Of a stretch of 64,000 nucleotides of DNA, positions 21,756-64,000 are shown piece after piece. Each line of letters starts with the position of its first letter. Positions within the stretch are counted from its first letter, which is position 1. The translations under genes and the position numbers were made by a program. Below the pieces are notes generated by a model. The model ran no database searches. It was not told the origin of the DNA and saw only the letters and a program-made list of their open reading frames with translations. The stretch is from a virus: IMG/VR virus record IMGVR_UViG_3300046674_000362, positions 21,482-85,481 of that record, one strand, 5' to 3'.

Positions 21756-21800
21756 TGAGGGTCCGGTTTAGGGGATAAAAAAACGGGCAGCGCACTCGAA

Positions 21801-21842
21801 AGTATGCCGCCCGTCAACCACACCAAAACCGGGGCTTTTCCT
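21801..21842 (-). promoter_or_regulatory. putative late promoter AGGAAAA-N29-CATACT
   Basis: Motif copy 5; upstream of darB. Confidence 0.7.
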
Positions 21843-21857
21843 TGCGGATTTACCCTA

Positions 21858-24020: not shown

Positions 24021-24021
24021 G

Positions 24022-25122
24022 TTACTCCTTGAGCGCCGCGTCGGCCTGGGCAATGGCATAGGCCGCATACGCCTCTACGGCGGATTTGAACAGCGCGAGC
24101 ATATCGGCATTGTCGGCGCTGGCCGCATGGATTTTCCCAAGCTCATCGGCCACGGCCAGATCGGACAGGTCCAGGGTGCCGCCGATCACGGCATTCAGGT
24201 AGGTGCGCGCCTCGGCGTGCTGGTCGGCGACCGGCTCAACCTTGACTTTCTTGGCGATGCCGTAGCCCTTGGACATTTCCGCGAATTGCTTGAGCTTTTC
24301 GGCGACCATGTGCGGGTGCGCCGCCAGCTCGCCGCCCGGCGTGAAGAAATCAAACAGCTTCGCCGCCCACGGCCCGCGAATCTTGTCCATGATCCCGTCT
24401 TTCGCGCCAATGTCGTGCTTCATGTTATTGATGGCGCTGCGCAGGTTCGTGTACTCGTTCGCATACTTGTTGCTGGCCGGGTCAAGGCGCAGCTCGCTCA
24501 TGCGGTCACTGGTGATCGACGCGACCATCTGGCGCAGGGACATTTGCTGACTATCGAACGTCCGGCCCATGCCTGCATACACCATCGCAGCGCGGCCAGT
24601 GTCGCCCATCGCCTCATAGTCCTTCTCGAAGTCCTCGGTAGTCTCGTAAGCGCCCCATTCCAGCTTGCGCTTTTCCGGCTCAGGGGCGTCGTCGCCCAGC
24701 TCGGTCACGATATGGCGCAGGCGGTCCAGATCGCCAAAAAACGTGTCGGCGTTCTCATCCAAGCGGCCGAGAATCTGCGCGCCCTCGCCGATCAGCTCGA
24801 AGGCTTCGGCCGGGCTTACTGCGTCGAGCACCGTTGTCGTCATGTCGTTGTTTTCCAGTTCGTCCATTAAATCGTCCTCGGTCGGGAGAACGGTAATTCC
24901 GTATTTCTCGGACTGGCAAAATCCGTAAAGGTCAGCCGGTTCCAGGCTATCGAATTCGATCAGCGCGCCGCCGCGCCCGGAAATAGAATTCAGCCCGAGA
25001 AAAGCCTTGAAATACTCGATTGCATCGGCGCTGCCGGTATATTCGACGCGGCTTTCCTCGTCATCGCCCCATGTGGCCTGAAACGCCCCGTAGGGCGTGA
25101 CTGCTTTGTAAATCGTGGTCAT
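24022..25122 (-). CDS. Dar-cluster protein with DarA C-terminal-like domain
   Basis: Start MTTIYK overlaps upstream stop (ATGA); C-terminal ARTYLNAVIGG...SAVEAY module; occupies the P1 hxr position. Confidence 0.65.
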   Translation of the reverse strand: MTTIYKAVTPYGAFQATWGDDEESRVEYTGSADAIEYFKAFLGLNSISGRGGALIEFDSLEPADLYGFCQSEKYGITVLPTEDDLMDELENNDMTTTVLDAVSPAEAFELIGEGAQILGRLDENADTFFGDLDRLRHIVTELGDDAPEPEKRKLEWGAYETTEDFEKDYEAMGDTGRAAMVYAGMGRTFDSQQMSLRQMVASITSDRMSELRLDPASNKYANEYTNLRSAINNMKHDIGAKDGIMDKIRGPWAAKLFDFFTPGGELAAHPHMVAEKLKQFAEMSKGYGIAKKVKVEPVADQHAEARTYLNAVIGGTLDLSDLAVADELGKIHAASADNADMLALFKSAVEAYAAYAIAQADAALKE

Positions 25123-27002
25123 TGTAGGTTCTCCACTCCAACTGTCTCGATCAGCTTTTTCTTGGGATCGCCAGAAAAGCCGTCGATGAAATAGCGCCAT
25201 GCGTTTGTGAGGCCCGCGTTGTCGCGGTGTGCGATGGCAAGCAGGGCTCGCACCATGTCGAGGTCGCCGTGGAAGCTGATCGAATCGGGAATCGTCCGCG
25301 CGCCGGTTTCGCTGCGCGTCCCGCCCGTCGAGGCATCCACAAGCAGGAATCCTTTGGCGTTGCGGTTGGTGTCGTACTTACGCAGGACGCCCGAGAACAC
25401 CTTGTACTCGCCGCTGCTGCCGACGTACTGCGCTTTGCCGGTGCGGACCTTCCGAAGCGGGTAGGCGTACAGCATTTCCGCAAACAGCGAATCCTGGTCG
25501 AGCGTGTCGAACCAGTCATCTTTCGTCAGCGGTGCCTTGCCCGCGAGGTAGTCGATGGCACGCCGGTACAGCTCGCCCTCGGTGCGCGCCTGCTCCTGCT
25601 TTTCGCCAATCGCGCCCTTGTGCATGTTCAGCTTCGCATGCATCGCGGGAGTCAGCGGCATGGTGAGATAGCCGGTAATCAGCGCGAACATTTCCGGGTC
25701 TTTCGCCGCGAAAATGGCGGCATCCTTCGGGTTCGCGAGGTACTGGACGCCCATCGACCACACTTCGGTGATGCCATCGCGGTACACCTTGCCGACATAG
25801 GCATCCATGAAGTGATCCTTGTAGGCCACTTCGCGGGTGTCATAGCCCTTGTTGCCGGTCAGGTCGCGCAGGCGGTAGGCTCCCTCGCCCTCGCGGCGCT
25901 TCAGCAGGAAGCCGTTCGAGGCGGCCTTCGCAATCGGATCGTTCTCAAGATGGTGCGCCAGCTCGTGAAACAGCACGGTCTTGTTGAAGCGCGAGCCCAG
26001 GTTAATGACCTTCTCGCCCAGGCGCTCGGTGATGCCGACGGCATTGGCGCGCTTGCCGCCGTCGATGCCGATGCGGATAGCCGATGCCTTGCCGCCTGTC
26101 AGGCGGTAGAACTCGGCCATATCGCGCACCACGTCATCGGGCTTGTAGCCCAGGCGCTTGAGCTTGGCCTTGGCGTTGTCGTCAATGACTTGCTCGCGCG
26201 CCCAGGCGTCCGCCTGCTCGGCCGTGATCGGCGATGCCTCGGCGATCTTGGTGAGGATCGCGCCCCCGGTTTCGTTGAAAATCGCGGCGTGCTTGGCCGC
26301 CCGGTCGGCGTAGAACTTCTGGTGCAGATCGTTCATGCGGGTCCACGCAGCCGTCTGCTCGTCGTCGTACTTCTGCCAGATCGCATCGCGCTGGCGCACC
26401 AACTCGTCAATGTTGGCGCTGTCCGATTCCATCAGCGCCTTGAGCGCAGCTAGGGCGTCCTTGCGCTGGGCGATGACACGCGCGTAGTCGTCGCGCGCCT
26501 TGGCGTATTCCGGGTCGTCTGCCGGGTGCTTCGTCAGCAGCTCATCGGCATCTGCCACCGTCTTGTTCAGTGCCTCCTGCGTGATGCCGTGCTTGACGCC
26601 ACGCCCTGCCAGGGTCGTGAACGCAGCGAGCTTCGCCTCGGGGTCGGCCGGTTTGCGGTTGAGCACGTTCTGGTAGTCCCAAATCTGCTCGGGCAGCATG
26701 GTGCCGCCGCTGCCGATGAGCTGGCCCAGGTCGCTTACCGTCACCAGCTCGAACAGCGCCAGCTCGTCCGGCAGCGCCTTGATGCCAGTTTCGAGGTAGC
26801 TTTTCAGCGCCTTGATCGACGCATCCTTATCCGCCAGGGAGAATTGCAGCGGCTTCACGGCCGACTCATACCCCAGCATGGCGAGGATTTCGCGCAGCCG
26901 GTTGAGGTCGTCAAAGAACCCGGACGATTCCTCGTCCAGATTCTTCAGCAGGGCCGCGCCTTCGCCGACGATGGCGAAGAATTCTTCGTGCCCTGCATCC
27001 AT
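25119..27002 (-). CDS. DdrB-like protein with HExxH zincin motif
   Basis: VLFHELAHHLE and YVGKVY...TEVWSMG; follows the DarA-like gene as ddrB does in P1. Confidence 0.7.
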   Translation of the reverse strand: MDAGHEEFFAIVGEGAALLKNLDEESSGFFDDLNRLREILAMLGYESAVKPLQFSLADKDASIKALKSYLETGIKALPDELALFELVTVSDLGQLIGSGGTMLPEQIWDYQNVLNRKPADPEAKLAAFTTLAGRGVKHGITQEALNKTVADADELLTKHPADDPEYAKARDDYARVIAQRKDALAALKALMESDSANIDELVRQRDAIWQKYDDEQTAAWTRMNDLHQKFYADRAAKHAAIFNETGGAILTKIAEASPITAEQADAWAREQVIDDNAKAKLKRLGYKPDDVVRDMAEFYRLTGGKASAIRIGIDGGKRANAVGITERLGEKVINLGSRFNKTVLFHELAHHLENDPIAKAASNGFLLKRREGEGAYRLRDLTGNKGYDTREVAYKDHFMDAYVGKVYRDGITEVWSMGVQYLANPKDAAIFAAKDPEMFALITGYLTMPLTPAMHAKLNMHKGAIGEKQEQARTEGELYRRAIDYLAGKAPLTKDDWFDTLDQDSLFAEMLYAYPLRKVRTGKAQYVGSSGEYKVFSGVLRKYDTNRNAKGFLLVDASTGGTRSETGARTIPDSISFHGDLDMVRALLAIAHRDNAGLTNAWRYFIDGFSGDPKKKLIETVGVENLQ

Positions 27003-29773
27003 TACGCCACCTTCTTCTTGAATTCAGCCACGAAGAAATTCTTGGCGGCCGTTTTCGCCTGCATGACCAGATCGAGGAAAGCGCCGCTCGGGTCGGTGTA
27101 GGTACGCGCCAGAGCCGCGAGGCGATCCGTCACGCCCTTGTCGTAGAAATCCACGTTACCGGCTGCTGCGGCGGCCAGGAAGTCGCCATCGGCCGATTCC
27201 TGGGCTTCCTGCGCCTCTTTCGCGGCCTTCGCTGCGGCCTCGGCGGTGGCGGCCTCCTGGGCGGCCTTCTCGGCTGCCGGGTCCACGGTCGTGATCGGGA
27301 CTGCGCCCTCGATCATGGCGTAAGCCTCGGCCGGGGTCGCGGCCCAGGCGCTACCCGCGCTGCGGCCATCAGCGTACAGCGCCTTGATCGCGCGGAATGG
27401 CTTTTCCTTGCTCGGGTTGATCTGGAACGCATAGCCATAGCCCACCAACTTCACCAGCTCGCCCAGCTCATTCGCAACGTAGCTGCCCACTTCCGGCAGG
27501 TAGTCGTCGGGCAAATCATCGGTGCGGCCGACGATGCCATACCAGCCGGGCTTGCCATCGTAGAACGCCTTGGCATCGCTGTAGAGCTTGTCCTTGTGCT
27601 CGGTTTTCGGCGGCGCACTGTTGGCGGTGTCCCAGCCATCGAGCCATTGCGCTTGCTGCCACGGAGCCATATCGGCCGGGGCGATGCGGTCCTGATCGTC
27701 AAAGAATGCGCTGCGGCCTGCCGCGAATGCCGCTTCTTCCATCCTTGCGCGGTCGGCCAGCTCGCCCGCGTTCGGATCGGGGAATTCGCCGGTTGCGAAA
27801 TACACGCTGGCGGCGTTCTCGGCGTCGCCTTCGCTCAGGTAGGCCGGGCTGATCGGGTTATCATTCTTGACGCTGGCGACGCGCCACGTACCTTGCGCCT
27901 CGTTTTTCTGCACATAGAACTTGTCGCGCCACGTCGGCTCAGGCTCTTGCTCTTGCTCTTGCTCTTGCTCCGCAACGAATTTGCCCTTGAACGCCTTGAG
28001 CTTGTTCGCGTTGCCCGGCCCCAAGTCCGGCCGGAATGCTTCGACAATGGCCTTGCCTTCCGGCGTGATGGCGCTGCGCTTGAGGTACTTGCTCGCCGCA
28101 TTCAGGCCCGCCGCCGCTTCGGTGTACTCTGCCTCTCCGATCCCGGCGTCGCTCATGGCGTTTTGCAGACGGGCGAACGACTTGAACGAAGCCGTTGCGA
28201 TCAGTACGACCATTTCCGCATCGGTCAACGCGGCCGCTTTCGGACGGTCCTCGCGCTCCAGAACTGCCACCACGTCAGCGATGTTTTCGAGTGAGTACCG
28301 TACCGCCGTCTGCATCCTTTCTTCCGGCCTCGGGACGCTGCCCGCATCCTCCGTCTTGCTGCCATCGCTGACGTTCGCATACAGGCGCGTGAAGTCCGCG
28401 CCCTCATGCGGCTTCCTGATTTCGAGCGTAGCGGTATAGCCGCCGTCAATGGCAATCATTGCGCTCGTATCGTCGCCCGAGGTCAGCGCATAGCCTTCCG
28501 GTAGTTGGCGCTCAATTTCAGCGCGCAGGGACAGGGCAGGGTCCGGCTGCGGCAGCGGGTCCGAGTCGGTCAGTCCTGCGGCGTCGCGCGAAGCCTGGGC
28601 GGCGGCCACCTGCTGCTCCAGATCGGCCAGCGTCGCCTCCTTCGTTTCCAGCTCGGTTTTCAGGCTGGCGATGGTTTCCATGCGCTCGGCGCGCTTGCCG
28701 TTGGCGGCGATGAAGCGGGCGCTGTTCTTCTCGGCCAGCATCATCAGGCGCGCGGCCACGGTGCGCACGTTCAGGTCGCGGCCCTTTTCCGGCGCGACGG
28801 CCACGGTGATGTCTTTCTTGTTGAGCATCCACTTCCACGAAATGACATCATCGCCGGGCGCGATCTTCCGGGGCGTCACGTCCGGGTTGTGGAAGAACAC
28901 CGACACGGTTTGGCCGTCGGTCAGCTCGTAGATCACGGCGACGTTGGTCGAGCCGCGCTGGGTGAACGGCTCGCTGACCTGCATCGAGGCCACCTTTACG
29001 GCGTCGCCCGCGCGGTCCAGCACCTTCTGCAACAGCGTCATGCGCTGCTCCAGGCGCGCGAGCGGGATCACCAGCGCATCCAGCGCCAGCACGCCGTCGG
29101 CATCGCCGAGGATGTCCGCCATGCTTACGGCGTCGAACAGCAGCCCGTCGTCGCCGTCATGTGCGCGCAGGCGGTAAAGCACCTGCTCCAGTGTCGAGTG
29201 CAGCGGCAAGTTAGCGCTGTCCCAAAGTACCTTTTCCATTTCGTCCGTTCCTTCGTTGGGGAGTTGATCTTGGGTGAGGGGGCGCGTCTTGTTGCCGTGC
29301 GCGATCCACCATTTGAGTTGCGTGATCGAGCACGCGGCGCAGCTTCCCAGGCCGGTCCAGCCGGGATCGTAGTTGCTCAGGTATCCAGCGACGGCGGTGC
29401 GCTTGTCGGGGAACCCCAGCATGATTTTGTGCTCATCGAACTTGCCGCCGATGAACTGGTTCACCACGTAGACGCGCGGCGACTCGGGCATCGGCCCGAT
29501 GCTGCAATCCAGCTCGTCACCATCGTTGCCCAGGGTGCCCATGATGTAGCCATAGTGGAACTTCATCAGGTTGCTGCCGCTGGTGCCGTCGGCCGCCTTC
29601 CAGTGGCGCAGCGTGCCGCGCGGCGATTCGATGGCGATGCGCAGGCCATGCAGGGACTCCCGCCCCTTGGCGTAGTTGCCCGCTTCGTTCTGTGCAGCCG
29701 TCGAGGCGCGCTTGTGGTTGTGTCCGTTCGCACCAGAGTGCGCGGCAATGTCGAGGTTGGCGAATTTATCCAT
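27002..29773 (-). CDS. DarA-like polyvalent protein with N-terminal inorganic pyrophosphatase-like domain
   Basis: Start re-set to MDKFANL; HYGYIMGTLGNDGDELD (InPase-like), ELTDGQTVSVFFHNPD (DarA_N-like), coiled coil, DarA_C-like end. Confidence 0.75.
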   Translation of the reverse strand: MDKFANLDIAAHSGANGHNHKRASTAAQNEAGNYAKGRESLHGLRIAIESPRGTLRHWKAADGTSGSNLMKFHYGYIMGTLGNDGDELDCSIGPMPESPRVYVVNQFIGGKFDEHKIMLGFPDKRTAVAGYLSNYDPGWTGLGSCAACSITQLKWWIAHGNKTRPLTQDQLPNEGTDEMEKVLWDSANLPLHSTLEQVLYRLRAHDGDDGLLFDAVSMADILGDADGVLALDALVIPLARLEQRMTLLQKVLDRAGDAVKVASMQVSEPFTQRGSTNVAVIYELTDGQTVSVFFHNPDVTPRKIAPGDDVISWKWMLNKKDITVAVAPEKGRDLNVRTVAARLMMLAEKNSARFIAANGKRAERMETIASLKTELETKEATLADLEQQVAAAQASRDAAGLTDSDPLPQPDPALSLRAEIERQLPEGYALTSGDDTSAMIAIDGGYTATLEIRKPHEGADFTRLYANVSDGSKTEDAGSVPRPEERMQTAVRYSLENIADVVAVLEREDRPKAAALTDAEMVVLIATASFKSFARLQNAMSDAGIGEAEYTEAAAGLNAASKYLKRSAITPEGKAIVEAFRPDLGPGNANKLKAFKGKFVAEQEQEQEQEPEPTWRDKFYVQKNEAQGTWRVASVKNDNPISPAYLSEGDAENAASVYFATGEFPDPNAGELADRARMEEAAFAAGRSAFFDDQDRIAPADMAPWQQAQWLDGWDTANSAPPKTEHKDKLYSDAKAFYDGKPGWYGIVGRTDDLPDDYLPEVGSYVANELGELVKLVGYGYAFQINPSKEKPFRAIKALYADGRSAGSAWAATPAEAYAMIEGAVPITTVDPAAEKAAQEAATAEAAAKAAKEAQEAQESADGDFLAAAAAGNVDFYDKGVTDRLAALARTYTDPSGAFLDLVMQAKTAAKNFFVAEFKKKVA
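27943..27970. repeat. hexamer tandem repeat (GCTCTT)x4.7 encoding EQEQEQEQ linker
   Basis: Seen directly; in-frame. Confidence 0.85.
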
Positions 29774-29779
29774 CCCCCC

Positions 29780-29821
29780 ATTGTCAGGGCCGGGGTGAGG
29801 CCGGGTGCGGCGGGTTTTCCT
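29780..29821 (-). promoter_or_regulatory. putative late promoter AGGAAAA-N29-GACAAT
   Basis: Motif copy 6; ATG 6 nt downstream of the -10. Confidence 0.7.
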
Positions 29822-29837
29822 GATGATACGAAACCGC

Positions 29838-29867
29838 TTGACGGCTCTTATTGTGAGCGCATACAAT
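29838..29867 (+). promoter_or_regulatory. repeated sigma70 promoter/operator, copy 2
   Basis: TTGACG-GCTCTTATTGTGAGCGCA-TACAAT. Confidence 0.85.
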
Positions 29868-55813: not shown

Positions 55814-56553
55814 GCGACAACACAAATTGCAAGGGCGCTTTCCGCGCATTCTATGATGGCGAAATCGAAATCCCTACGCGCCCCGCCCGCGTATGCGTCA
55901 GCCCCTTGGCTACCCGCCCGGTCCTGTACACGGACACCGTGGGCGGCGTGCAAACCTGCCGCGATGACCTGTGGGCCATCACCACCGACGAGCTGAACGC
56001 GCTGGCCGCCCCGGACGCGCTGGCCGCCGTCGAGCACCACACCTACGGCAGCATCGCCGAGCGCATGACTGGCAAGCACCGCGATGACAGCGGCACCGTG
56101 TACGTCACCCTGGCCGATGCCGAGGCGGCCGTGCGCGCCGTGGCGAGCACCAGCACGGCATGGCGGCAGACCGCCGAAACCAAGGACCGGCAGGCCGCCG
56201 AGGTGCGCGCGCACCTCCAGCAGACCCGCATGGCGCTGCGCTGGGCGCTGGAATGGATTGACGCCGTGCCGGGCGATACCCCGCTGCCGACCATGCCCGG
56301 CTTCGACCGCGACTACGTGAACGTCCTGCTTGATACCCCGACCACCTCCGCACGCCCGGCCATCGGCACCGAAGAACAGGCCGATGCAATGCTGGCGGAC
56401 CTGACCCGCGAGTACCACCAGCGCGCTGCCCCGATCCTCAAGATTCTGACGACCTTTGCAGCGTTGCGTCCGCCCCCACCCATGCTCATATCGCGCGAGC
56501 ATGCCGAGCGCTTGGGCTTCACGCCGTCCAACCTGCCGGGAGAGCCAGAGTGA
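55810..56553 (+). CDS. hypothetical protein
   Basis: Start MSDNTN after AAGGA; contains the [16 protein letters not shown] phage module. Confidence 0.65.
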
Positions 56554-57164
56554 GCCGCGTATTCGCCTACTGCCGGGTATCGACCGGCGACCAGACCACC
56601 GAGAACCAGATTGCCGAGATTGCGGGGGCAGGGTTCGCCATCGACGCCAAGCGCGCCATTGCCGAGACTATCAGCGGCTCCGTGGCCGCGACCGAGCGCC
56701 CCGGCTTCACGAAACTGCTGGACCGCCTGGAGCCCGGCGACGTGCTCGTGGTAACGAAGCTGGACCGCCTGGGCCGCAACGCGATGGACTTGCGCGCCAC
56801 CGTGTCCAACCTTGAGCGCGCGGGAATTCGCGTGCATTGCCTCGCGCTGGGCGGCATGGACCTCACCAGCCCGGCCGGGAAGATGACGATGGGCGTTATC
56901 GCGGCCGTTGCCGAGTTCGAGCGGGACTTGCTCATCGAGCGCACGAACGCGGGCCTTGCGCGGGCCAAGAAAGACGGCAAGCGCTTCGGCCGCCCGCCTG
57001 CACTGGACGAGGATGCACGCGGCATGGCGCGGGCTATGCTGGCCGCTGGCGTGCCTGTCTCCGAAGTCGCCCGCGACCTGAACACCTCCCGCGCCACCAT
57101 CATCCGGGCGCGCGATTCCGTACCGCTGCCGCCCGCTCCCGAGCCCGGCCAGCTCGCCGCCTGA
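56550..57164 (+). CDS. serine recombinase (resolvase/invertase, Pin-like)
   Basis: [10 protein letters not shown] catalytic Ser, [24 protein letters not shown] and C-terminal HTH. Confidence 0.92.
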
Positions 57165-57454: not shown

Positions 57455-58159
57455 ATGACCATGCTGAAAAATGAAATCCTGAACGTAGATGGCACGAACT
57501 GGCTGATCCGCGAGGCCACCAATTACGACGAGGTTCACAACGCTATCGCAGCGGCGCGAGTCACCGGCAGCATCGGCGGCAGGCATGCCGAGCGACTCGG
57601 CGACGGCCCGGTAACGGTGCTTGCCGACGTGGTGCGCCTGAACGACGATGGCACCGAATGCCTGCCCTACGGCGAGAAGGGCGGCACCGACCATAGCGCC
57701 CTCGTCGCCCTCGCCAAGCTCCGCGCCGACTACGACCAGCTCGGCCGCGCCCTGAATCAAGCGAACCTGCGCAACCGCGTGTATGCCGGTGCGCTCGCGC
57801 AGATCGACGCATGGGTTACGGCCGCCGATCCGTGCTACCACGAAGCCGAATTCCTGCGCACCATCATCACCAAGGAAATCACCGAGGCGCACGCCACCAT
57901 CGCCGAGGCGCGAGCCGCCGCGAAGCAAGGGCAGCAGCTCGCGCCTACCGATCTGCTGGTGCTCGCCCCCGAGGCGCGCGGCCTGGACCTGAACGATTCC
58001 GCCGACCGCGAGCACTTCCGCGTCCGTGTCGCCCTCCGACTGCAAGGCTATGCCATCGAAGTGATCCGCCGCTGGGTGAGTAACCCGGCGCGCGACCGCG
58101 ACACCATCGTGCGCGCCATCGCTGACGCCTATATCGCGCACGCCTGCGCCGCCAAATAA
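57455..58159 (+). CDS. hypothetical protein
   Basis: 234 aa, GGAGA RBS. Confidence 0.65.
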   Translation: MTMLKNEILNVDGTNWLIREATNYDEVHNAIAAARVTGSIGGRHAERLGDGPVTVLADVVRLNDDGTECLPYGEKGGTDHSALVALAKLRADYDQLGRALNQANLRNRVYAGALAQIDAWVTAADPCYHEAEFLRTIITKEITEAHATIAEARAAAKQGQQLAPTDLLVLAPEARGLDLNDSADREHFRVRVALRLQGYAIEVIRRWVSNPARDRDTIVRAIADAYIAHACAAK

Positions 58160-58186
58160 CCGCCATACCCACTACGGAGAACTACC

Positions 58187-58486
58187 ATGAGCCAATCTTG
58201 CCCCCGCTGCTACAAGATCGTAGCCCGCGCCTGCCAGTCCGAAACCGAATCGGCCGAGTGCCGCGAGCTACGCAATCAGCGCCCCCTGGAAAAGTCCAAT
58301 GAGTACAGCGTCACCATCGGCGAACGCCTGTTCACTGCGAAACGCAGCGGCCCGGACGCCGCATGGCAGGTGGACTATCCCGAGGGCGGTTTCCAGCGCC
58401 ACGGCACCAAGAGCGAAGTCGCCAACCTGATCCGCGCCAAAGCGCGCGAGCTGGCCGCCGCTGACGCCGAGGCCGACGCCTCCTGA
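58187..58486 (+). CDS. hypothetical protein
   Basis: 99 aa, GGAGA RBS, N-terminal CxxC. Confidence 0.6.
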   Translation: MSQSCPRCYKIVARACQSETESAECRELRNQRPLEKSNEYSVTIGERLFTAKRSGPDAAWQVDYPEGGFQRHGTKSEVANLIRAKARELAAADAEADAS

Positions 58487-58498
58487 CCAGGGGAACTC

Positions 58499-58711
58499 AT
58501 GAAAACAGAAGATACCTACATCGTCCACCAGTCGCCTAAACAGAGCTGCCGCGCGGCGCTGGCCCACATCATCGTGATTGTTGACGCCAGCTCAAAGAAG
58601 GAGGCCATCGAAAAGGCCAGCACCCCGGAAGGAGGTATCAACGCCTCCGACAAGGACTACAAGAAACCCATAGCTGACAAGGTGCATAAGGGCGGCGTCT
58701 ACCACCTGTAG
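58499..58711 (+). CDS. hypothetical protein
   Basis: 70 aa; VDASSKKEAIEKA motif. Confidence 0.55.
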   Translation: MKTEDTYIVHQSPKQSCRAALAHIIVIVDASSKKEAIEKASTPEGGINASDKDYKKPIADKVHKGGVYHL

Positions 58712-58807
58712 ACCAGCCCGCCCCGCGTCACCCATGCCCGCCCCGAGCGGGCTTTTCCCGTAGAAGGCGGCGCACTTAGGCGCGGCCACCACTCAAGGAA
58801 ATGACCG

Positions 58808-59599
58808 ATGGCTGAATTCATCAATCAACACGTCGAGCCGCCGCTGGATGGCTTCAACGCAATGGGGAAGCCGATCCCGGCCGATCAGCGCCAGCACGGC
58901 TATGACACTTGCAAGGAAATGGGCCTCGACTCGGCGCGCGCCTGGGAGTGCGTCAATGCGACTGCCGAACAGCTCGAACGCGACAAGCCGCACGAGGCCC
59001 AGGGCGCGGCCATGAAGTTCCTCGACCTGACCGGCGCGTATCGCCTCATGGCGGTGCTGCTGACCAAGGCAGGTGAACAGATCAAGCCTGTCGGCCGCAA
59101 TGCCGATCTGCGCGACGGTACGACCATTCGCGACGGCGAGGGCAAGCAGTACCGCGTGCATTACATGCGCAACAGCCTGATCGTCGCGCATCCTATTGTG
59201 GACGGCAAGGCGCAGGTAAGCCGCGATACCACGGTTCGGTTCTGGACCGACCCCGATATGCCGACAGCGGGAGAGAACGACCGCACCGATCCAGTGTACG
59301 TCGTCAGCCCGCCCACTGCCCCGGCGACGAAGCCCCGCCGCGAGGCTACCGCGCGCATGCTCCGCGACTACCCGAAGGTGCAAACTGTCTGGCTGGTCGA
59401 AGTTCCGCACACGAACGGCCGCACCAAGCAATACAAGGCCACCACCTACCCGGATAGCGAGCTGATCTTCCTCGAATCGTCGCCGCGCGGCCGGGCCATC
59501 GCCGCAGGCAACACGAAGAACCTGCTGCCCGCCGTCCGCGAGGCCATCGCCAAGGCGCGCACCGCCACCACCCAGGAACCCACCGGAGAACCGCAATGA
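58808..59599 (+). CDS. hypothetical multidomain protein
   Basis: 263 aa, AAGGA RBS. Confidence 0.65.
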   Translation: MAEFINQHVEPPLDGFNAMGKPIPADQRQHGYDTCKEMGLDSARAWECVNATAEQLERDKPHEAQGAAMKFLDLTGAYRLMAVLLTKAGEQIKPVGRNADLRDGTTIRDGEGKQYRVHYMRNSLIVAHPIVDGKAQVSRDTTVRFWTDPDMPTAGENDRTDPVYVVSPPTAPATKPRREATARMLRDYPKVQTVWLVEVPHTNGRTKQYKATTYPDSELIFLESSPRGRAIAAGNTKNLLPAVREAIAKARTATTQEPTGEPQ

Positions 59600-60204
59600 C
59601 CACCGACCGAGAGCGCGACGACCAGCACACCGCCCTTGTGCTGGCTGCTGAGACAGCCCTGACCAGCGCCGAGCGCGCAACATTCCTTTCCCGCTTCGAC
59701 CGCTCGCAAGCAGGCGCGAGCGTCGCCGATGTTCTCGACACGCTGCACAGCAATGATTCCAACATCGAACTGGTGGAGCAGCTTGCCGAGCGCCACGGCA
59801 ACCAAGTGCCCGAGCCGGGCCTACTCGCCGTCGCTATCCAGATCGCGAACCAACTGGACTATCAAGGCTTGTTCATGCGGCCGTGGGAAACCCTAGAACC
59901 GCTCATCGAGCGCATCCGGCCGCTGCTGGGCCTGCCCTCCTGGGAGCTGCGCATTGAAAGGGAAAAGCGCGACAAGCTGGAGCTGCTGGCCCCGCTGGGC
60001 TTCGAGGACTATGACGACGGCGAGCAACCCGGTGCGATCTGGCACCCGCTGATCGGCAACATCAACTACGGCAGCGTCCGACTGGACAACGTGATCGACC
60101 TCGCGTTCAAGGCCGGGCAGCAGCAGGGCATGAGCGAGCTGCGCGCCAAGTTCCGCGCCCTGCTCGATGTCGCCCCGGCACCGCGCCCCGAGGACGGCCA
60201 ATGA
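59596..60204 (+). CDS. hypothetical protein
   Basis: 202 aa, ATGA-coupled. Confidence 0.6.
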   Translation: MTTDRERDDQHTALVLAAETALTSAERATFLSRFDRSQAGASVADVLDTLHSNDSNIELVEQLAERHGNQVPEPGLLAVAIQIANQLDYQGLFMRPWETLEPLIERIRPLLGLPSWELRIEREKRDKLELLAPLGFEDYDDGEQPGAIWHPLIGNINYGSVRLDNVIDLAFKAGQQQGMSELRAKFRALLDVAPAPRPEDGQ

Positions 60205-60449
60205 GGATCGACGCGCGATTCAACAAGCGGACGGCCGATCAGGTCGAAGTCGCCACGCCAGCGGTGCAGGCCGGGCCGCAGTACGAGCTGGGCATGCGCG
60301 TGATGTTCTTCGCGACGAACGGCAGCGACAAGGGCCAGCTCGCCGCGAACATGAGCCCGATGGAGGCGCTGGCGTTCGCCGCCGAGCTGGTGACGACTGC
60401 CACCCGGCAACTGAAATACGAACAGGAGCGGGCCGCAAAAGCGAAATAG
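60201..60449 (+). CDS. hypothetical protein
   Basis: 82 aa, coupled, terminator follows. Confidence 0.6.
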   Translation: MRIDARFNKRTADQVEVATPAVQAGPQYELGMRVMFFATNGSDKGQLAANMSPMEALAFAAELVTTATRQLKYEQERAAKAK

Positions 60450-60465
60450 CCCCGCAGACCCCGCC

Positions 60466-60490
60466 AGCCCGCGCCCAGCGGGCTTTTTTT
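60466..60490 (+). terminator. intrinsic terminator
   Basis: AGCCCGCGCCCAGCGGGCT plus T-run. Confidence 0.75.
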
Positions 60491-60555
60491 CGTCCGTCCG
60501 ATACTTTCCTCGTCCAGACCGGCGCGCGGCTTATAGAGCCTCTAATCGCGCCGCC

Positions 60556-61044
60556 CTACTCCAGCGGCCAGAACCACGCCTCTTTGCTGGTCCAGTAGCA
60601 GTCATTCCCGCAGGCCAGCTCCCCAGCCCCGCCGAGCTGCGGCGAAATTATGTCGATGTGGCCGCCCTCATAGAGCCCCGGAATCAGGTGGAAGAACGAC
60701 ACGATGCCGCTGCGCCGCCCTATCAGCTCCGCAATTGCCGGGCCACTCCCGGCCTTCTCAGGATTGCCGAGCATTAAGGGGCGCGCAAGGATATGGGACA
60801 GCTTGATCTGCCCAGGCTCGATCATCTTGCCCTTGTGCGTCCCGGCCCTCACCTGTAGCCGTCCGTCAGGAATGTGGACGCCGGAACGCAGCAGTGCGAG
60901 GCTGGCTCGGATCGCGCAGGTATCGTGATAGGCCGGGTTTGGAATCAGGTCATCCCATCCGAGCTGGTGGAACAGCACCTCTCGGCTAATGTCGCGCCTG
61001 CGCGGGTACGCCTGCATCAGAACGGGGAACGGAATGGATCGCAT
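60556..61044 (-). CDS. T6SS peptidoglycan amidase effector, Tae4 family
   Basis: Start re-set to MRSIPF after GGAGG; DTCAIRASLAL (catalytic Cys), GIVSF, GHIDI (His), terminal WFWPL. Confidence 0.85.
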   Translation of the reverse strand: MRSIPFPVLMQAYPRRRDISREVLFHQLGWDDLIPNPAYHDTCAIRASLALLRSGVHIPDGRLQVRAGTHKGKMIEPGQIKLSHILARPLMLGNPEKAGSGPAIAELIGRRSGIVSFFHLIPGLYEGGHIDIISPQLGGAGELACGNDCYWTSKEAWFWPLE

Positions 61045-61046
61045 CG

Positions 61047-61454
61047 CTACCTCCGCGCAGGACAGGGGAATCGGGCGATATAGAGGCGCACCAGCTCGGC
61101 GGCGGCGCTTCTCGGCATGGTGCCCGCCCGCTGACGCAGCTCGTCCCAAATCCGGTCATCTACCTCGCCGGGCTTCATTCCAGGCGGCGCGCACCAGAGC
61201 CGCCCTTGCGTCGCATCGACCACGCCCGCCTGATAGCCTTCGGCGTAGCGCTGCGCATAGGCTGCGTCCGGGCGCTGATGCCACTTGTCCACGCCCGGCT
61301 GACCAGATACCTGCGCCACGAAATCATTACCGGAGAGGTGCCAGGGGAATACAACCAGCGGGCTCGCGGCAGCGTAGGCGGCAGCCACAACGATGCTCAG
61401 CACCACGACACCCCGCACGGACCTCCTGCGGCGCAATGTGCCGGGCCGCATCAT
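61047..61454 (-). CDS. Rap1a/Tai-family periplasmic immunity protein
   Basis: Signal peptide, SGNDF, GYQAGVVD, WCAP, terminal FPC; ATGA-coupled to hcp. Confidence 0.8.
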   Translation of the reverse strand: MMRPGTLRRRRSVRGVVVLSIVVAAAYAAASPLVVFPWHLSGNDFVAQVSGQPGVDKWHQRPDAAYAQRYAEGYQAGVVDATQGRLWCAPPGMKPGEVDDRIWDELRQRAGTMPRSAAAELVRLYIARFPCPARR

Positions 61455-61942
61455 GCCACCCTGTTCGCTGACAAGTCCCAGCCGCCCGCCGTATTGCCGC
61501 CCGCGCCGCCCGTAATCTTCTGCATGCAATACTTCCACTTGACCTTGCCGAACTTGAGGCCGATATGCTCCTGCATCACGTCGCCACCGTTGACGCCCTG
61601 CGCCACCGATGCGATCAGCACGTTCTCCAGCTCGACCTCGTAGTATTTGACCCGCGTTCCGCTGCCGTCCGCGCGCATGAATTCGAGCTTGGCCTTCGGG
61701 ATCGTCTTGCCCATCGCGCAATGCTGGGCCAGTATCGGCGATGCGAGGTCCGCCGCCTTGTTGATGCTTACCTCTGTGAATTCGACTCGCTCGGCCGTGT
61801 GGCCGCCCGCCGTCGAGCTGGTCGCGCTCTTGGGCTGGGATAGCGCCCAGTTCACCGAACTACACTCGATCCAGCCCTTATGCGCATCGTCGCTCGACTC
61901 GCCCTTGATGCCCTCGACCTGCAAATACACGTCTATCGCCAT
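61451..61942 (-). CDS. hcp: Hcp (TssD) type VI secretion tube protein
   Basis: YLQVEGIKGESSDDAHKGWIEC, DLASPIL, KYYEVELENVLI, GWDLSAN; AGGAGG RBS. Confidence 0.95.
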   Translation of the reverse strand: MAIDVYLQVEGIKGESSDDAHKGWIECSSVNWALSQPKSATSSTAGGHTAERVEFTEVSINKAADLASPILAQHCAMGKTIPKAKLEFMRADGSGTRVKYYEVELENVLIASVAQGVNGGDVMQEHIGLKFGKVKWKYCMQKITGGAGGNTAGGWDLSANRVA

Positions 61943-62028
61943 GATTTTCCTCCTAGCCATGCAAGGAAGTCATCATGAGTTATGTGCGCACAGCCCGCAT
62001 TGCGCCCCAGCATGGATTCCGGGCTACC

Positions 62029-62066
62029 AAAAGCAAAGGCCCGACTGTCTCTCAACAATCGGGCCT
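62029..62066 (-). terminator. putative intrinsic terminator upstream of hcp
   Basis: AGGCCCGATTG...CAGTCGGGCCT followed by TTGCTTTT on minus strand. Confidence 0.5.
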
Positions 62067-62255
62067 CGGCCCGGCCGCCACCCGACGACCTCATGGGCTA
62101 TGCCCGAGGCGGATCATACCGCCTTATCGCCGGGCAGGCAAAGCGACTTTTTCGCCATCGCCCGCCCGGAATCCATGTCCGTATGTCCCGCCCTGTCCAC
62201 AATTCGTTTGCCTAGCTTTTGGGCAGTCTTAAACCGGGTGCCCGGAAGCGCTCGA

Positions 62256-62498
62256 TTACGGCGCGGGCGCGGCCTCGTGGGTCACCGGCACGACTTCGGA
62301 CTGAGTCTCGATCCAGACCCTCGCGCCGCAGGAAAGCGGCTTTTCCGGGCTATGCACTACCTTGCTCGGGCCGTTGATGATGGCCTCATGGGCATACGTG
62401 TTGCTCTTGTGCGTCTTGATGGTCAGCGCCGGATCGTTCGCCCCGTTCTTGAGGTTCGCCCGGATTACGTGTTGGTTCACATGGATGATGGTTTTCAT
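62256..62498 (-). CDS. conserved small phage protein
   Basis: MKTIIHVNQHVIRAN...KPLSCGARVWIET, recalled as widespread in phages. Confidence 0.7.
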   Translation of the reverse strand: MKTIIHVNQHVIRANLKNGANDPALTIKTHKSNTYAHEAIINGPSKVVHSPEKPLSCGARVWIETQSEVVPVTHEAAPAP

Positions 62499-62526
62499 GC
62501 TGCTTTCGGTTGAGTGTTGCGGGATG

Positions 62527-62811
62527 TCACTTGTTTCGTTTCGTCCGCTGCTCGCGGTGGCGCTTGCCGGTGCGGGGTGGCGGCAGGATCGGCCCGGCCC
62601 AGCGCTTCGGGGCGGCCTTGACCGGGTAAGGCTGCGGCGGCAGCTCGGGCAGCAGGTGCGCATCGCGCAGCAGGGCCGCGCCCAGGTCGGACGCCTCGAC
62701 CGCCTGGGGAACGTGACGCGACGCCACCAGCACCGCGCCAGAACCGCGTAGGGCCGCTTCCAGCGCCGCGCCGAGGGATGGGCCTGCCCCGATCACCAGA
62801 ACCGTGCTCAA
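62527..62811 (-). CDS. hypothetical protein
   Basis: TTG start overlapping upstream TGA, GGAGG RBS. Confidence 0.5.
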   Translation of the reverse strand: MSTVLVIGAGPSLGAALEAALRGSGAVLVASRHVPQAVEASDLGAALLRDAHLLPELPPQPYPVKAAPKRWAGPILPPPRTGKRHREQRTKRNK

Positions 62812-63197
62812 GCGGCCTCCAGCGGTAGCGGGAGCTGGTCGCCGGGCTGCTGCCGGGCTTCGATGGCCGCCAGGAAGTGCGCGGAGTCGGCCCGCCTGTA
62901 TTCCCACAAGCGCGCGTGCTGCGGGTAGCGCACGGCGAACGCGCGCGCCAGATCGGGAGCCATGTGGTCATTGATCTTGAAGCTGCACGCCCCGGCCTCG
63001 CGCAACCGGGTGTAGTGCCTGATTTCCTCCACGATGGTGCGGGCTGAGAAATGCGTCCACCCGGCCGCGATGAGGTCGAGCGTTTGGCGCTCGAACTGCT
63101 GCCAGATCGGGTCATTGATGCCCAGCCAGTCCAGAAATTCGGGACGGAAGTAGGCCGCGAACGGCAGCAGATCATCATTGCGGTTCGGGTCCGTCAT
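62808..63197 (-). CDS. hypothetical protein
   Basis: Start MTDPNR after AGGAGG; FSARTIVEEIRH...FKIND motif. Confidence 0.65.
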   Translation of the reverse strand: MTDPNRNDDLLPFAAYFRPEFLDWLGINDPIWQQFERQTLDLIAAGWTHFSARTIVEEIRHYTRLREAGACSFKINDHMAPDLARAFAVRYPQHARLWEYRRADSAHFLAAIEARQQPGDQLPLPLEAA

Positions 63198-64000
63198 GCG
63201 GCCTCCTGATCGAGCGGGGTGCCGTCCGGCTTCATCCCCATAGATGCCATGAGCTTTGCGCGGGCCTCGTCCTTGGCGCTGCCGTCGTTGGCCGCTTCCT
63301 CGCCCGCGAGGTTGTAGTAGGCGTCCTCCAGATAGGCGAACGACAGCGAATCCCATATGTCCGGCGACGGGATGCCCTCTTTGCGCATATCCTCTTTCTT
63401 GGCGATGTAGCGGCGGGCCTTCTCGTCGTAGTGGTACGGGATGCGCGAGCCTTCGCGCACGATCTGCTTGACGATGGCCGGGTCAATCCCCTCATCAATG
63501 CCGAATCGGCCCTCCTGCACGGCGCGGGACAGGCCGCAGATCGCTTGCGCGCGCTGGTTCGCATAGCGGTCCTTGTATTCCTTCTTGAAGTTCGGGATGC
63601 CCCAGTTCACTTTCTTGAAGTTGTGGAAGTCGGCCTTTTCGAGCTGCTTGCAAACGCCCAGGCCGATACCGCCCGCGTCCACCAGCGCCATGCTGTTGTT
63701 GAGCTGGCCCGCCTCGGTGATGATCCGGCCTGGGAGGTCGGACACATCCTGATCGTTCGAGCACACCGGCACCTTGACGAGCTGGACGCGGCGCGCGTTG
63801 TCGCCATACTCGCCGTCACCCGTCACCTTCAGCGCCAGCACCACGCTCTTGTCGCGGTAGCCGCCACCGCCCACGTCCACCGGCAGCAGCCACCCGAACG
63901 GCTCATCCGGGCGCACGGCGATGAGGCCGACGCATGCCTGAATGGCCTTTGGACCCAGCAGGTACTTGCTCGACTGCTCACTGAAGCGGCCCAGCACCTT
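63194..64000 (-). CDS. pacB: terminase large subunit PacB, C-terminal nuclease part (5' end outside window)
   Basis: VDVGGG..RDKSV, VDAGGIG, YANQRA, SPDIWD match P1 PacB-type RNase H-like domain. Confidence 0.85.
   Translation of the reverse strand, partial: KVLGRFSEQSSKYLLGPKAIQACVGLIAVRPDEPFGWLLPVDVGGGGYRDKSVVLALKVTGDGEYGDNARRVQLVKVPVCSNDQDVSDLPGRIITEAGQLNNSMALVDAGGIGLGVCKQLEKADFHNFKKVNWGIPNFKKEYKDRYANQRAQAICGLSRAVQEGRFGIDEGIDPAIVKQIVREGSRIPYHYDEKARRYIAKKEDMRKEGIPSPDIWDSLSFAYLEDAYYNLAGEEAANDGSAKDEARAKLMASMGMKPDGTPLDQEAA

Follow-up and report, generated by a model that had tools for sequence, protein, structure and literature searches.

We analysed a 64,000-nucleotide stretch of viral DNA (the window), which comprises bases 21482–85481 of the 85,481-base IMG/VR virus record IMGVR_UViG_3300046674_000362, and identified on its minus strand, at 60556–61942, three genes arranged head to tail in the order hcp, immunity gene, tae4. 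They encode a type VI secretion system (T6SS) tube protein, an immunity protein of the Rap1a/Tai4 family and a peptidoglycan amidase of the Tae4 family. The three genes likely form an accessory lysogenic-conversion cassette of a P1-like temperate phage, one that would add a single weapon to the T6SS of the host itself. A first-pass annotation of the window had proposed that the phage arms the T6SS of its host with a tube subunit, a toxin and an antidote. As far as this can be computed, the proposal is supported: the families were correctly named, and the cassette is both orphan and accessory. By inference, the proteins would leave through the host T6SS, the lysogen would express them, and non-lysogens or cured siblings would be killed.

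The hcp–immunity–tae4 cassette and the phage that carries it

The first gene, hcp (tssD; 61451–61942, minus strand), starts with an ATG at 61942, 6 nt after an AGGAGG, and encodes a single-domain Hcp1-family tube protein of 163 aa and 17.3 kDa. The protein matches the Pfam T6SS_HCP profile PF05638 over positions 1–129 of 129 (E 1.5e-39, 135.7 bits, cut-off 23.5), exceeds the cut-off of NCBIfam TIGR03344 (E 9.2e-23, 81 bits, cut-off 58.9) and matches many Hcp1-family chains in the PDB, down to E 6e-38. Its PHROGs family is phrog_27303, of unknown function. The full-domain profile match and the kinship to Hcps of T6SS clusters, described below, place the protein in the Hcp/TssD family. The second gene (61047–61454, minus strand) encodes 135 aa; its start codon shares the ATGA at 61451–61454 with the stop codon TGA of hcp. 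The product matches Pfam Rap1a PF18602 (E 1.9e-15, 57.6 bits, cut-off 27.7) and, in the PDB, Tai4 (6ije, E 4e-6) and Rap1a (3zfi, E 1e-3); the profile score, the position next to tae4 and the translational coupling identify it as a Rap1a-family protein. Its N-terminus contains a basic RRRR, a hydrophobic stretch at residues 14–30 and AYA/A, as read by eye, with a hydropathy peak of 2.5 at residues 16–30. On the basis of this signal-peptide-like segment, judged by eye and by hydropathy, the immunity protein is predicted to be exported.

The third gene, tae4 (60556–61044, minus strand), begins with an ATG 2 nt after the TAG of the immunity gene, has a GGAGG upstream, and encodes a peptidoglycan amidase effector of 162 aa and 17.9 kDa. 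The assignment to Tae4 is based on the match to Pfam PF14113 (E 5.5e-10, 39.8 bits, cut-off 27), on the similarity to solved structures (6ijf, with a chain named Tae4, E 2e-30; Ssp1 4bi3, E 8e-26) and on both catalytic residues, Cys and His: Cys43 occupies the position mutated in the C50A version of Ssp1, and His129 is part of a GGHID motif. We take 6ijf to be from Agrobacterium tumefaciens. Tae4 has no hydrophobic N-terminal segment (maximum hydropathy 0.1), and its size and its linkage to a dedicated Hcp clade, described below, fit loading into Hcp. Neither the immunity protein nor Tae4 has a match in NCBIfam or a family in PHROGs. The coordinates, the reading frames and the Pfam scores, which exceed the cut-offs for all three proteins, confirm the tightly coupled operon with an ATGA overlap that the first-pass annotation had described. 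In GC content (0.62–0.68) and GC3 (0.77–0.84) the three genes deviate by no more than 1.3 SD from the mean of the phage's 108 called genes, and no compositional anomaly of the cassette relative to the phage was detected.

The HMMs for VgrG/Phage_GPD, PAAR, TssC, TssB and TssM/IcmF gave no match in the whole 85,481-base record. The cassette is therefore orphan, and the earlier statement that the window contains no other T6SS gene extends to the entire record. With a direct terminal repeat of 127 nt and CheckV completeness at 100, the record represents an entire circular phage genome of 85.5 kb and P1 type, from soil/rhizosphere; the length of exactly 127 nt suggests that a circular assembly was closed at the assembler's word length. 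The large terminase (TerL) ORF crosses the window end and the terminal repeat and measures 519 aa in all; the C-terminal 267 aa of this PacB-like protein, traced through its tblastn relatives and the wrap-around ORF, lie in the window at 63194–64000 (minus strand). Its nearest named relative by tblastn is that of Xanthomonas phage Rb1 (42%), and it is 28–34% identical to PacB of D6, P1, P7, SJ46 and RCS47. The phage also encodes a DarB-like 2267-aa methylase and SNF2-helicase protein, a protein with DarA_N plus InPase domains, an SLT-domain protein, a tail sheath (phrog_1036), a portal, RecT/exonuclease, ParB- and ParA-like partition proteins (DarB-like, DarA_N and ParB/ParA genes at window 14952–29866 and record 15566–17725) and a GH19 endolysin homologue (record 18991–19635). 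The record contains no tyrosine integrase. A PacAB-type terminase, Dar head proteins, partition genes and the absence of an integrase are together characteristic of P1-like phage-plasmids, and the phage probably persists as a plasmid in the lysogen, as judged from this gene content. No tRNAs were found in the window. The gene after the sheath gene matches only phrog_1053 (unknown function) and a hypothetical protein of Rb1. At 56550–57164 there is a gene whose homologues in relatives have an N-terminus that we take to be serine-recombinase-like.

The accessory status of the cassette emerged from a comparison with eight IMG/VR loci (L100–L107) whose TerL is 73–88% identical to that of the phage. 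As far as the flanks extend, these loci keep replication genes, nin-like genes, TerS, TerL and g129 in the same order, and the convergent genes on the other side are conserved as well. The g129 gene (62808–63197, minus strand; phrog_13625, E 4e-5) is a conserved backbone gene that directly follows TerL in all eight loci at 70–77% identity. The stretch between the g129 homologue and the convergent genes, on the other hand, is 0.5–2.2 kb long and holds unrelated small genes that differ from phage to phage. Neither hcp, rap1a, tae4 nor the small phage gene g80 (62256–62498, minus strand; phrog_8676, E 5e-26) occurs at this spot in any of the eight loci, and no PF05638 match was found in five related whole records, four of which are at least 90% complete. 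Given the conserved flanks and the differing content between them, we conclude from these alignments that a spot for variable cargo follows the terminase operon and that the T6SS cassette is one of its fillings. Absence from close relatives at the same position is also what marks moron-type cargo. The g80 gene is a second variable gene at this spot, with no homologue in the eight related loci or in any hcp locus. At the same spot L104 carries a 386-aa ORF of unknown function. Xanthomonas phage Rb1 shares only TerL and one HTH protein in the first 13.7 kb, which affords no comparison of the insertion site.

The junction of the cassette with phage DNA was assessed in six rhizosphere metagenome runs that cover part or all of 59800–63600, four of which were compared by contig; the three with full coverage may be the source of the record and are hence not independent of it. 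In one run, a single 25-kb contig spans 59800–63600 with one base difference. In each of the two others, a 30-kb contig runs from the plus-strand phage genes through tae4 and the immunity gene into the 3' part of hcp, and an 8-kb contig contains the 5' part of hcp, g80, g129 and TerL. The two contigs overlap by 30 nt and have similar depths (64.2 versus 59.6 in one run, 60.1 versus 57.6 in the other). The fourth run yielded only fragments at 2–5x, with no coverage of 60562–61450. Because both halves of hcp continue into phage DNA and one contig spans the whole stretch, a chimeric assembly was rejected. The concern, raised at the outset, that the module might be chimeric or chromosomal is answered by its position inside a complete phage genome, with contigs that join phage DNA on both sides.

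Relatives on Massilia chromosomes and on other viral contigs

A scan of a species-representative genome collection with an Hcp pattern returned 79 loci, in which all named genera belong to the Oxalobacteraceae, mostly Massilia. The best match was the Hcp of Massilia norwichensis (83% identity). With markers taken from the main T6SS cluster of M. norwichensis, 48 of the 79 loci were located inside a tssC-hcp-tssE-clpV cluster, and the other 31 are orphan. Five of the orphan chromosomal loci (L018, L019, L022, L029 and L035) have tae4 downstream and hold six cassettes, two of them as one tandem pair. The two closest of these loci (L018 and L019) sit among ordinary Massilia genes. L019 (3268–6759) belongs to a Massilia metagenome-assembled genome (MAG) with two tandem hcp-rap1a-tae4 cassettes among ordinary chromosomal genes, the second of which is, of all full cassettes, nearest to that of the phage (Rap1a 67%, Tae4 60%, by tblastn).

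In a maximum-likelihood tree of 96 Hcp rows, the sister of the phage Hcp is the orphan M. norwichensis Hcp (support 100/93), and in this comparison with chromosomal copies the phage protein nests among Massilia T6SS Hcps. One clade (98/95) holds all 16 Tae4-linked Hcps, namely that of this phage, nine viral and six chromosomal ones, and also includes L007, whose contig ends right after hcp, and L023, which gave no tae4 match. The 48 core-cluster Hcps fall outside this clade. The phage Hcp is 68–83% identical to the 15 other Tae4-linked Hcps and 65–74% identical to the 48 core-cluster Hcps, and 14 alignment positions separate the Tae4-linked from the core Hcps. The dedicated clade, apart from the core Hcps, fits a cargo-specific role. 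Viral and chromosomal rows are interleaved, and the viral Tae4-linked label requires six changes on the tree, which points to repeated exchange of the cassette between phages and chromosomes. By these comparisons, the origin of the cassette lies among the orphan hcp-tai-tae islets of Massilia.

The TerL relatives provide a view of the host that is independent of hcp, and were found in a Noviherbaspirillum MAG (Oxalobacteraceae; 72%) and in an unclassified Pseudomonadota MAG. The Hcp kinship together with these TerL relatives suggests that the host is probably a Massilia or a close relative in the Oxalobacteraceae. Of 101 genomes sampled from the genus of M. norwichensis, 90 gave a TssC match, and all five cassette-bearing Massilia genomes have one to three TssC matches. 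Judged by this marker, the likely host genus nearly always has the T6SS on which the proposal depends. Tae4 was found in only 45 of the 101 genomes, with no match in the other 56; many neighbours would therefore be without a matching cassette.

The same cassette occurs on other viral contigs. The Hcp scan of IMG/VR returned 15 contigs (59–82% identity), nine of which have tae4 about 400 nt downstream. In all 16 cassettes, whether from this phage, from other viruses or from chromosomes, the gene between hcp and tae4 is of the Rap1a family. All 16 immunity proteins match PF18602 and have invariant Cys88 and Cys131; the 16 Tae4 proteins all have Cys43 and His129, and at least 90% of them retain Asp131. 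The first L019 copy of Tae4, which has an uncertain start, was left out of the Tae4 alignment A2 and included in the other residue check. A scan with a profile of the Tae4 alignment returned 26 viral contigs, in every one of which an immunity gene lies immediately upstream. The complete hcp-immunity-tae4 triple is present in 19 of them; the other seven show no hcp in the available flank, in two cases because the contig ends close by. In L115, L119, L126, L128 and L130, a Rap1a-Tae4 pair was observed with no hcp within 0.9–3 kb upstream.

Genes flanking the viral cassettes of the Hcp scan include those for integrases, a Dam-type methylase, a GH19-type endolysin and proteins of the tail and tail fibres. 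Five parent records, one of them with terminal repeats, reach 92–100% completeness, and none of the five has TssC. Cassettes adjacent to an integrase are found in L003–L012. The setting in our phage, a P1-like plasmid-type backbone of about 85 kb with the cassette at a post-terminase site, is, as annotated, unlike that of these integrase-adjacent prophage cassettes.

The viral hcp genes were also observed with other cargo. A Peptidase_M74-like protein (murein endopeptidase) and an exported partner follow hcp in L013 (8502–9349) and L015 (3773–4659), and L017 (2679–3565) has, by eye, a homologue of this cargo. Pairs of unknown cargo follow hcp in L014 (2022–2450) and L016 (7447–8414); in L016, the hcp set comes directly after a 323-aa gene, and its Hcp is on a very long branch. 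A gene of about 65 aa, with an N-terminus MTPRTD..., lies near hcp in nine integrase-type viral loci (L004 1497–1697, with homologues in L005, L006, L008, L009, L010, L013, L014 and L017). It has no PHROG match and is absent from all 79 genome loci and from this phage.

Proposed role, expression signals and rival explanations

Small T6SS effectors ride in the lumen of the Hcp ring, and Hcp serves as their chaperone and receptor. For the likely role as an accessory weapon, we propose the following sequence of events. The lysogen would make the phage Hcp, a variant dedicated to Tae4-type cargo, and this Hcp would bind the 17.9-kDa Tae4 and join, or alternate with, the resident tube of the host. 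Firing of the T6SS would then deliver Tae4 to the periplasm of neighbouring cells, where peptidoglycan would be cut. The Rap1a/Tai4 protein, once exported, would shield the lysogen and lysogens among its kin, and cells without the immunity gene, including cells cured of the phage, would be sensitive.

The surroundings of the cassette bear on its expression. The cassette ends a minus-strand run TerS-TerL-g129-g80 and converges on plus-strand genes that end at 60449, in agreement with its earlier placement between the terminase region and the early cassettes. Between these plus-strand genes and the end of tae4 (60556) lies a terminator hairpin with a T-run (60466–60484, plus strand), which is canonical for the plus strand only. 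On the other side, between g80 and hcp, we found a structured intergenic element of 181 nt (62005–62185, minus strand) with a fold energy of −110.7 kcal/mol (z −8.54 versus shuffles). It is closed by a 14-nt perfect inverted repeat (62011–62024 and 62164–62177) and contains a promoter-like site (62141–62113) and a terminator-like hairpin (62067–62036), so that terminator-like hairpins lie on both sides of the cassette, with one weak promoter-like site. A segment of 45 nt of this element recurs after the terminase operon of the related phage L103 (9163–9206), and the element is therefore at least partly phage backbone. It could be the terminator region of the terminase operon, a small RNA or a recombination site. 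Rfam returned nothing near any gathering score, for this element included, and the element was not found in 110 genomes of the likely host genus by a search that had no positive control and is correspondingly weak. Around the cassette, the search for insertion scars gave only short, chance-level repeats.

The hcp leader itself is predicted to be structured. In minimum free energy (MFE) folds, a hairpin (61949–61969, minus strand) pairs the Shine-Dalgarno (SD) sequence AGGAGG (61949–61954) with CUUCCU (61964–61969). This anti-SD stem was followed in leader alignment A3, which comprises L003–L012, L018, L019, L022, L029 and L110–L125, with L019b, L111 and L134 left out as identical or nearly so. 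In 23 cassette leaders, 79.3% of cells are paired, as compared with 37–52% in slid controls; four of eight pairs change on both sides, and none of 500 shuffles reaches the covariation score. These values give moderate support to conservation of the stem, with the proviso that the structure was derived from the same sequences and that the rows are related. Eight core-cluster hcp leaders, when folded, showed no comparable conserved anti-SD stem by eye. In many cassettes, both viral and chromosomal (L003–L012, L019, L110–L125), a promoter-like motif, TTGAC..GTTAACAAGTTGCCGTAAAC, is located about 45–70 nt upstream of hcp. The phage's own recurring motifs, a lacO-like early-promoter palindrome and the late-promoter motif AGGAAAA-N29, do not precede its hcp.

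Several of these observations weigh against the proposed accessory role. The sole promoter-like site upstream of hcp is weakly sigma-70-like and lies upstream of the terminator-like hairpin; the SD of hcp is predicted by the MFE folds to be sequestered by the CUUCCU 10 nt upstream; and the TTGAC..GTTAACAAGTTGCCGTAAAC motif shared by the other cassettes is absent from the phage within three mismatches of its 15-nt core. Consequently, when and whether the phage cassette is expressed is the weakest link in the argument. At 65–74% identity to the core Hcps, the phage Hcp would also have to co-assemble with the host tube. The host was assigned from kinship rather than observed, and no TssC match came from 11 of the 101 genomes sampled in the genus; in a host without a T6SS the cassette would be inert. 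Finally, the contigs of two of the three fully covering runs break inside hcp (61686–61716), even though both halves enter phage DNA. The break falls in a conserved part of hcp and is probably an assembly-graph branch caused by other hcp alleles of the community that share words with it.

The break within hcp is one of the points in favour of another explanation, namely that the cassette is an inert passenger from a recent capture of host DNA, or an artefact of a chimeric join through the conserved hcp segment. The chromosomal copies among ordinary Massilia genes (L018, L019) and the absence of the usual promoter motif of these cassettes would be in line with this explanation as well. We nevertheless regard it as improbable. 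The two halves of hcp extend into phage DNA for 28 kb on one side and for 8 kb, with TerL, on the other, at near-equal depths, and in the third run the whole stretch lies on one contig. The reading frames are intact, lie in tight coupling and retain the catalytic residues, and the nearest homologues (83% for Hcp; 67% for Rap1a by tblastn; 60% for Tae4) indicate that the capture was not recent. At least 19 other viral contigs carry the cassette independently, which speaks for selection. Least probable, in our judgement, is a role in the virion or in lysis, with Hcp as a tail-tube-like virion protein and Tae4 as an endolysin or virion-associated wall hydrolase, which the first-pass annotation had put forward as an alternative. 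It is true that Hcp is a structural homologue of phage tail tubes, that the cassette lies downstream of the terminase operon on the same strand and that the tube gene of the phage was not positively identified. However, the Hcp is 65–83% identical to bacterial T6SS Hcps and nests inside their tree, and none of five related phages of the same architecture has an Hcp, which therefore cannot be an essential part of the virion. The phage has its own sheath gene, SLT-domain protein and GH19 endolysin homologue; an exported immunity protein coupled to the amidase would defeat a lysis role; in other prophages the same cassette adjoins integrases, far from tail genes; and here a terminator-like hairpin separates it from the terminase operon. 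We rejected a virion or lysis role on these grounds.

A closer competitor concerns what was selected. According to it, either immunity against the Tae4 of neighbours or stabilisation of the plasmid prophage, by a toxin-immunity pair that kills segregants among kin, would be the selected trait, and offence would be secondary. The occurrence of Tae4 in 45 of 101 genus genomes makes an incoming Tae4 attack plausible, and ParA/ParB without an integrase make loss by mis-segregation a real risk. The immunity gene precedes tae4 and is translationally coupled, and all 26 viral Tae4 loci keep it, seven of them with no hcp in the available flank. Immunity alone, however, would need neither hcp nor tae4, whereas in this phage all three genes are intact with conserved catalytic residues, and hcp is present in 19 of the 26 viral loci. 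Most other carriers are integrating prophages, to which plasmid addiction is irrelevant, and cross-protection is doubtful, given that the Rap1a of 14 of the 15 other cassettes is only 21–29% identical to the phage copy (60% in one). Selection for defence or addiction thus appears rather unlikely. A related and bolder extension of the accessory-weapon proposal, which we consider conceivable though doubtful, is that the cassette acts as a contact-dependent addiction system at the level of the population. Cells that lose the phage-plasmid would lose immunity and be killed through the T6SS by their carrier siblings, so that the cassette would replace or supplement a classical toxin-antitoxin stabiliser; the SD-hiding hairpin would gate the weapon post-transcriptionally until the host T6SS is active, and Hcp cassettes would pass as a shared currency between the chromosomes of Oxalobacteraceae and several unrelated phage lineages.

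Overall, of the two proposals in the first-pass annotation, the arming of the host T6SS is supported as far as computation reaches. The other, a second use of Hcp or of the amidase as a virion part or in lysis, is not supported, in view of the sheath gene, the GH19-type endolysin homologue, the predicted export of the immunity protein and the integrase-adjacent copies.

Comparison with known effector pairs and phage-borne T6SS clusters

If the cassette works as proposed, lysogeny would change who kills whom in a rhizosphere community, and phages, a plasmid-like one included, would spread sets of T6SS weapon and immunity among Massilia strains. The three genes also provide a compact test system, both for the acceptance of a foreign Hcp into a resident tube and the selection of its cargo and for the stabilisation of a mobile element by toxin-immunity cargo through kin killing. 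The practical stakes are small, and the biology extends current knowledge without being surprising.

The phage effector and its immunity protein belong to the same families as the Tae-Tai pair of A. tumefaciens (Atu4347/Atu4346) and the Ssp1-Rap1a pair of Serratia marcescens (4bi3, 4bi8, 3zfi). By inspection of the alignments, the phage Tae4 is about 35–45% identical to the Tae4 and Ssp1 proteins of solved structures. Both Tae4/Tai4 and Ssp1/Rap1a are well characterised (PMC4832377, PMC7811202). According to the second of these papers, the A. tumefaciens Tae cleaves D-Glu-mDAP bonds, Tai neutralises it, and it confers a benefit over siblings without tae-tai; the tae-tai pair sits in the hcp operon (PMC7811202). 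The residues C43, H129, C145 and C149 of the phage Tae4 compare with C47, C144 and C148 given there for the A. tumefaciens Tae; the catalytic Cys and His and two Cys near the C-terminus are kept (PMC7811202). The immunity protein is exported in the Tae-Tai and Ssp1-Rap1a systems and, from its N-terminus, predicted to be so in the phage. Two features set the phage apart from these systems. Both lie inside the main chromosomal T6SS cluster, whereas the phage pair travels with its own hcp and no other T6SS gene; and the genes of the phage are ordered hcp-immunity-effector.

Orphan hcp-effector islets, or "hcp islands", have long been known, for example in Pantoea and Erwinia (PMC3235180). The orphan hcp islets, including those of Massilia (L018, L019, L022, L029 and L035), share with the phage the same three-gene layout and a cargo-dedicated Hcp clade. 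They are chromosomal, whereas the phage cassette is carried on a complete P1-like genome and has a different upstream region.

Vibrio cholerae reportedly has a prophage-like T6SS auxiliary cluster, Aux3. Among phages, the Ralstonia phage phiRSY1 carries vgrG (PMC5694545), phages AB4/Mana of Burkholderia gladioli carry PAAR-TseV-TsiV (PMC13366799), and an atlas of Ralstonia describes, on prophages of the Myo-, Sipho- and Inoviridae, auxiliary clusters linked to vgrG and suggests a mutualist role for such phages (PMC11481896). We found no published report of an Hcp-type or Tae4 cassette on a phage, with the limit that Tables S1–S3 of the Ralstonia atlas (PMC11481896) could list hcp-linked clusters. 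Two further reports, PMC11699363 (MuF toxins, with Hcp2 only as a test substrate) and 10.1101/2021.12.26.474169, had no bearing on the cassette. Among deposited phages, tblastn with the Hcp returned seven records, comprising two of 328–379 kb labelled Acinetobacter phage MD-2021a (43% identity), four fragments of 1.4–4.8 kb and one 501-kb Salmonella contig; none of the seven is a close relative or an ordinary complete phage genome. In the same set, tblastn with Tae4 gave no match at E <= 1e-3, and megablast with 58000–64000 gave none.

The Ralstonia and Burkholderia phage clusters and the present cassette have the same composition, a loading component, a toxin and an immunity protein with no apparatus, and for all of them an arming of the host T6SS is proposed. 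They differ in the loading component, which is the Hcp tube protein in this phage and a VgrG spike or PAAR tip in the Ralstonia and Burkholderia phages. They differ further in cargo, here a Tae4 amidase, in carrier, here a P1-like phage that has partition genes and no integrase, and in the probable host, which belongs to the Oxalobacteraceae. The case extends the phage-carried T6SS clusters from spike-linked (VgrG/PAAR) to tube-linked (Hcp) ones, and we conclude that the cassette is the tube-linked form, on a plasmid-type phage, of the already-known phage-borne T6SS auxiliary clusters.

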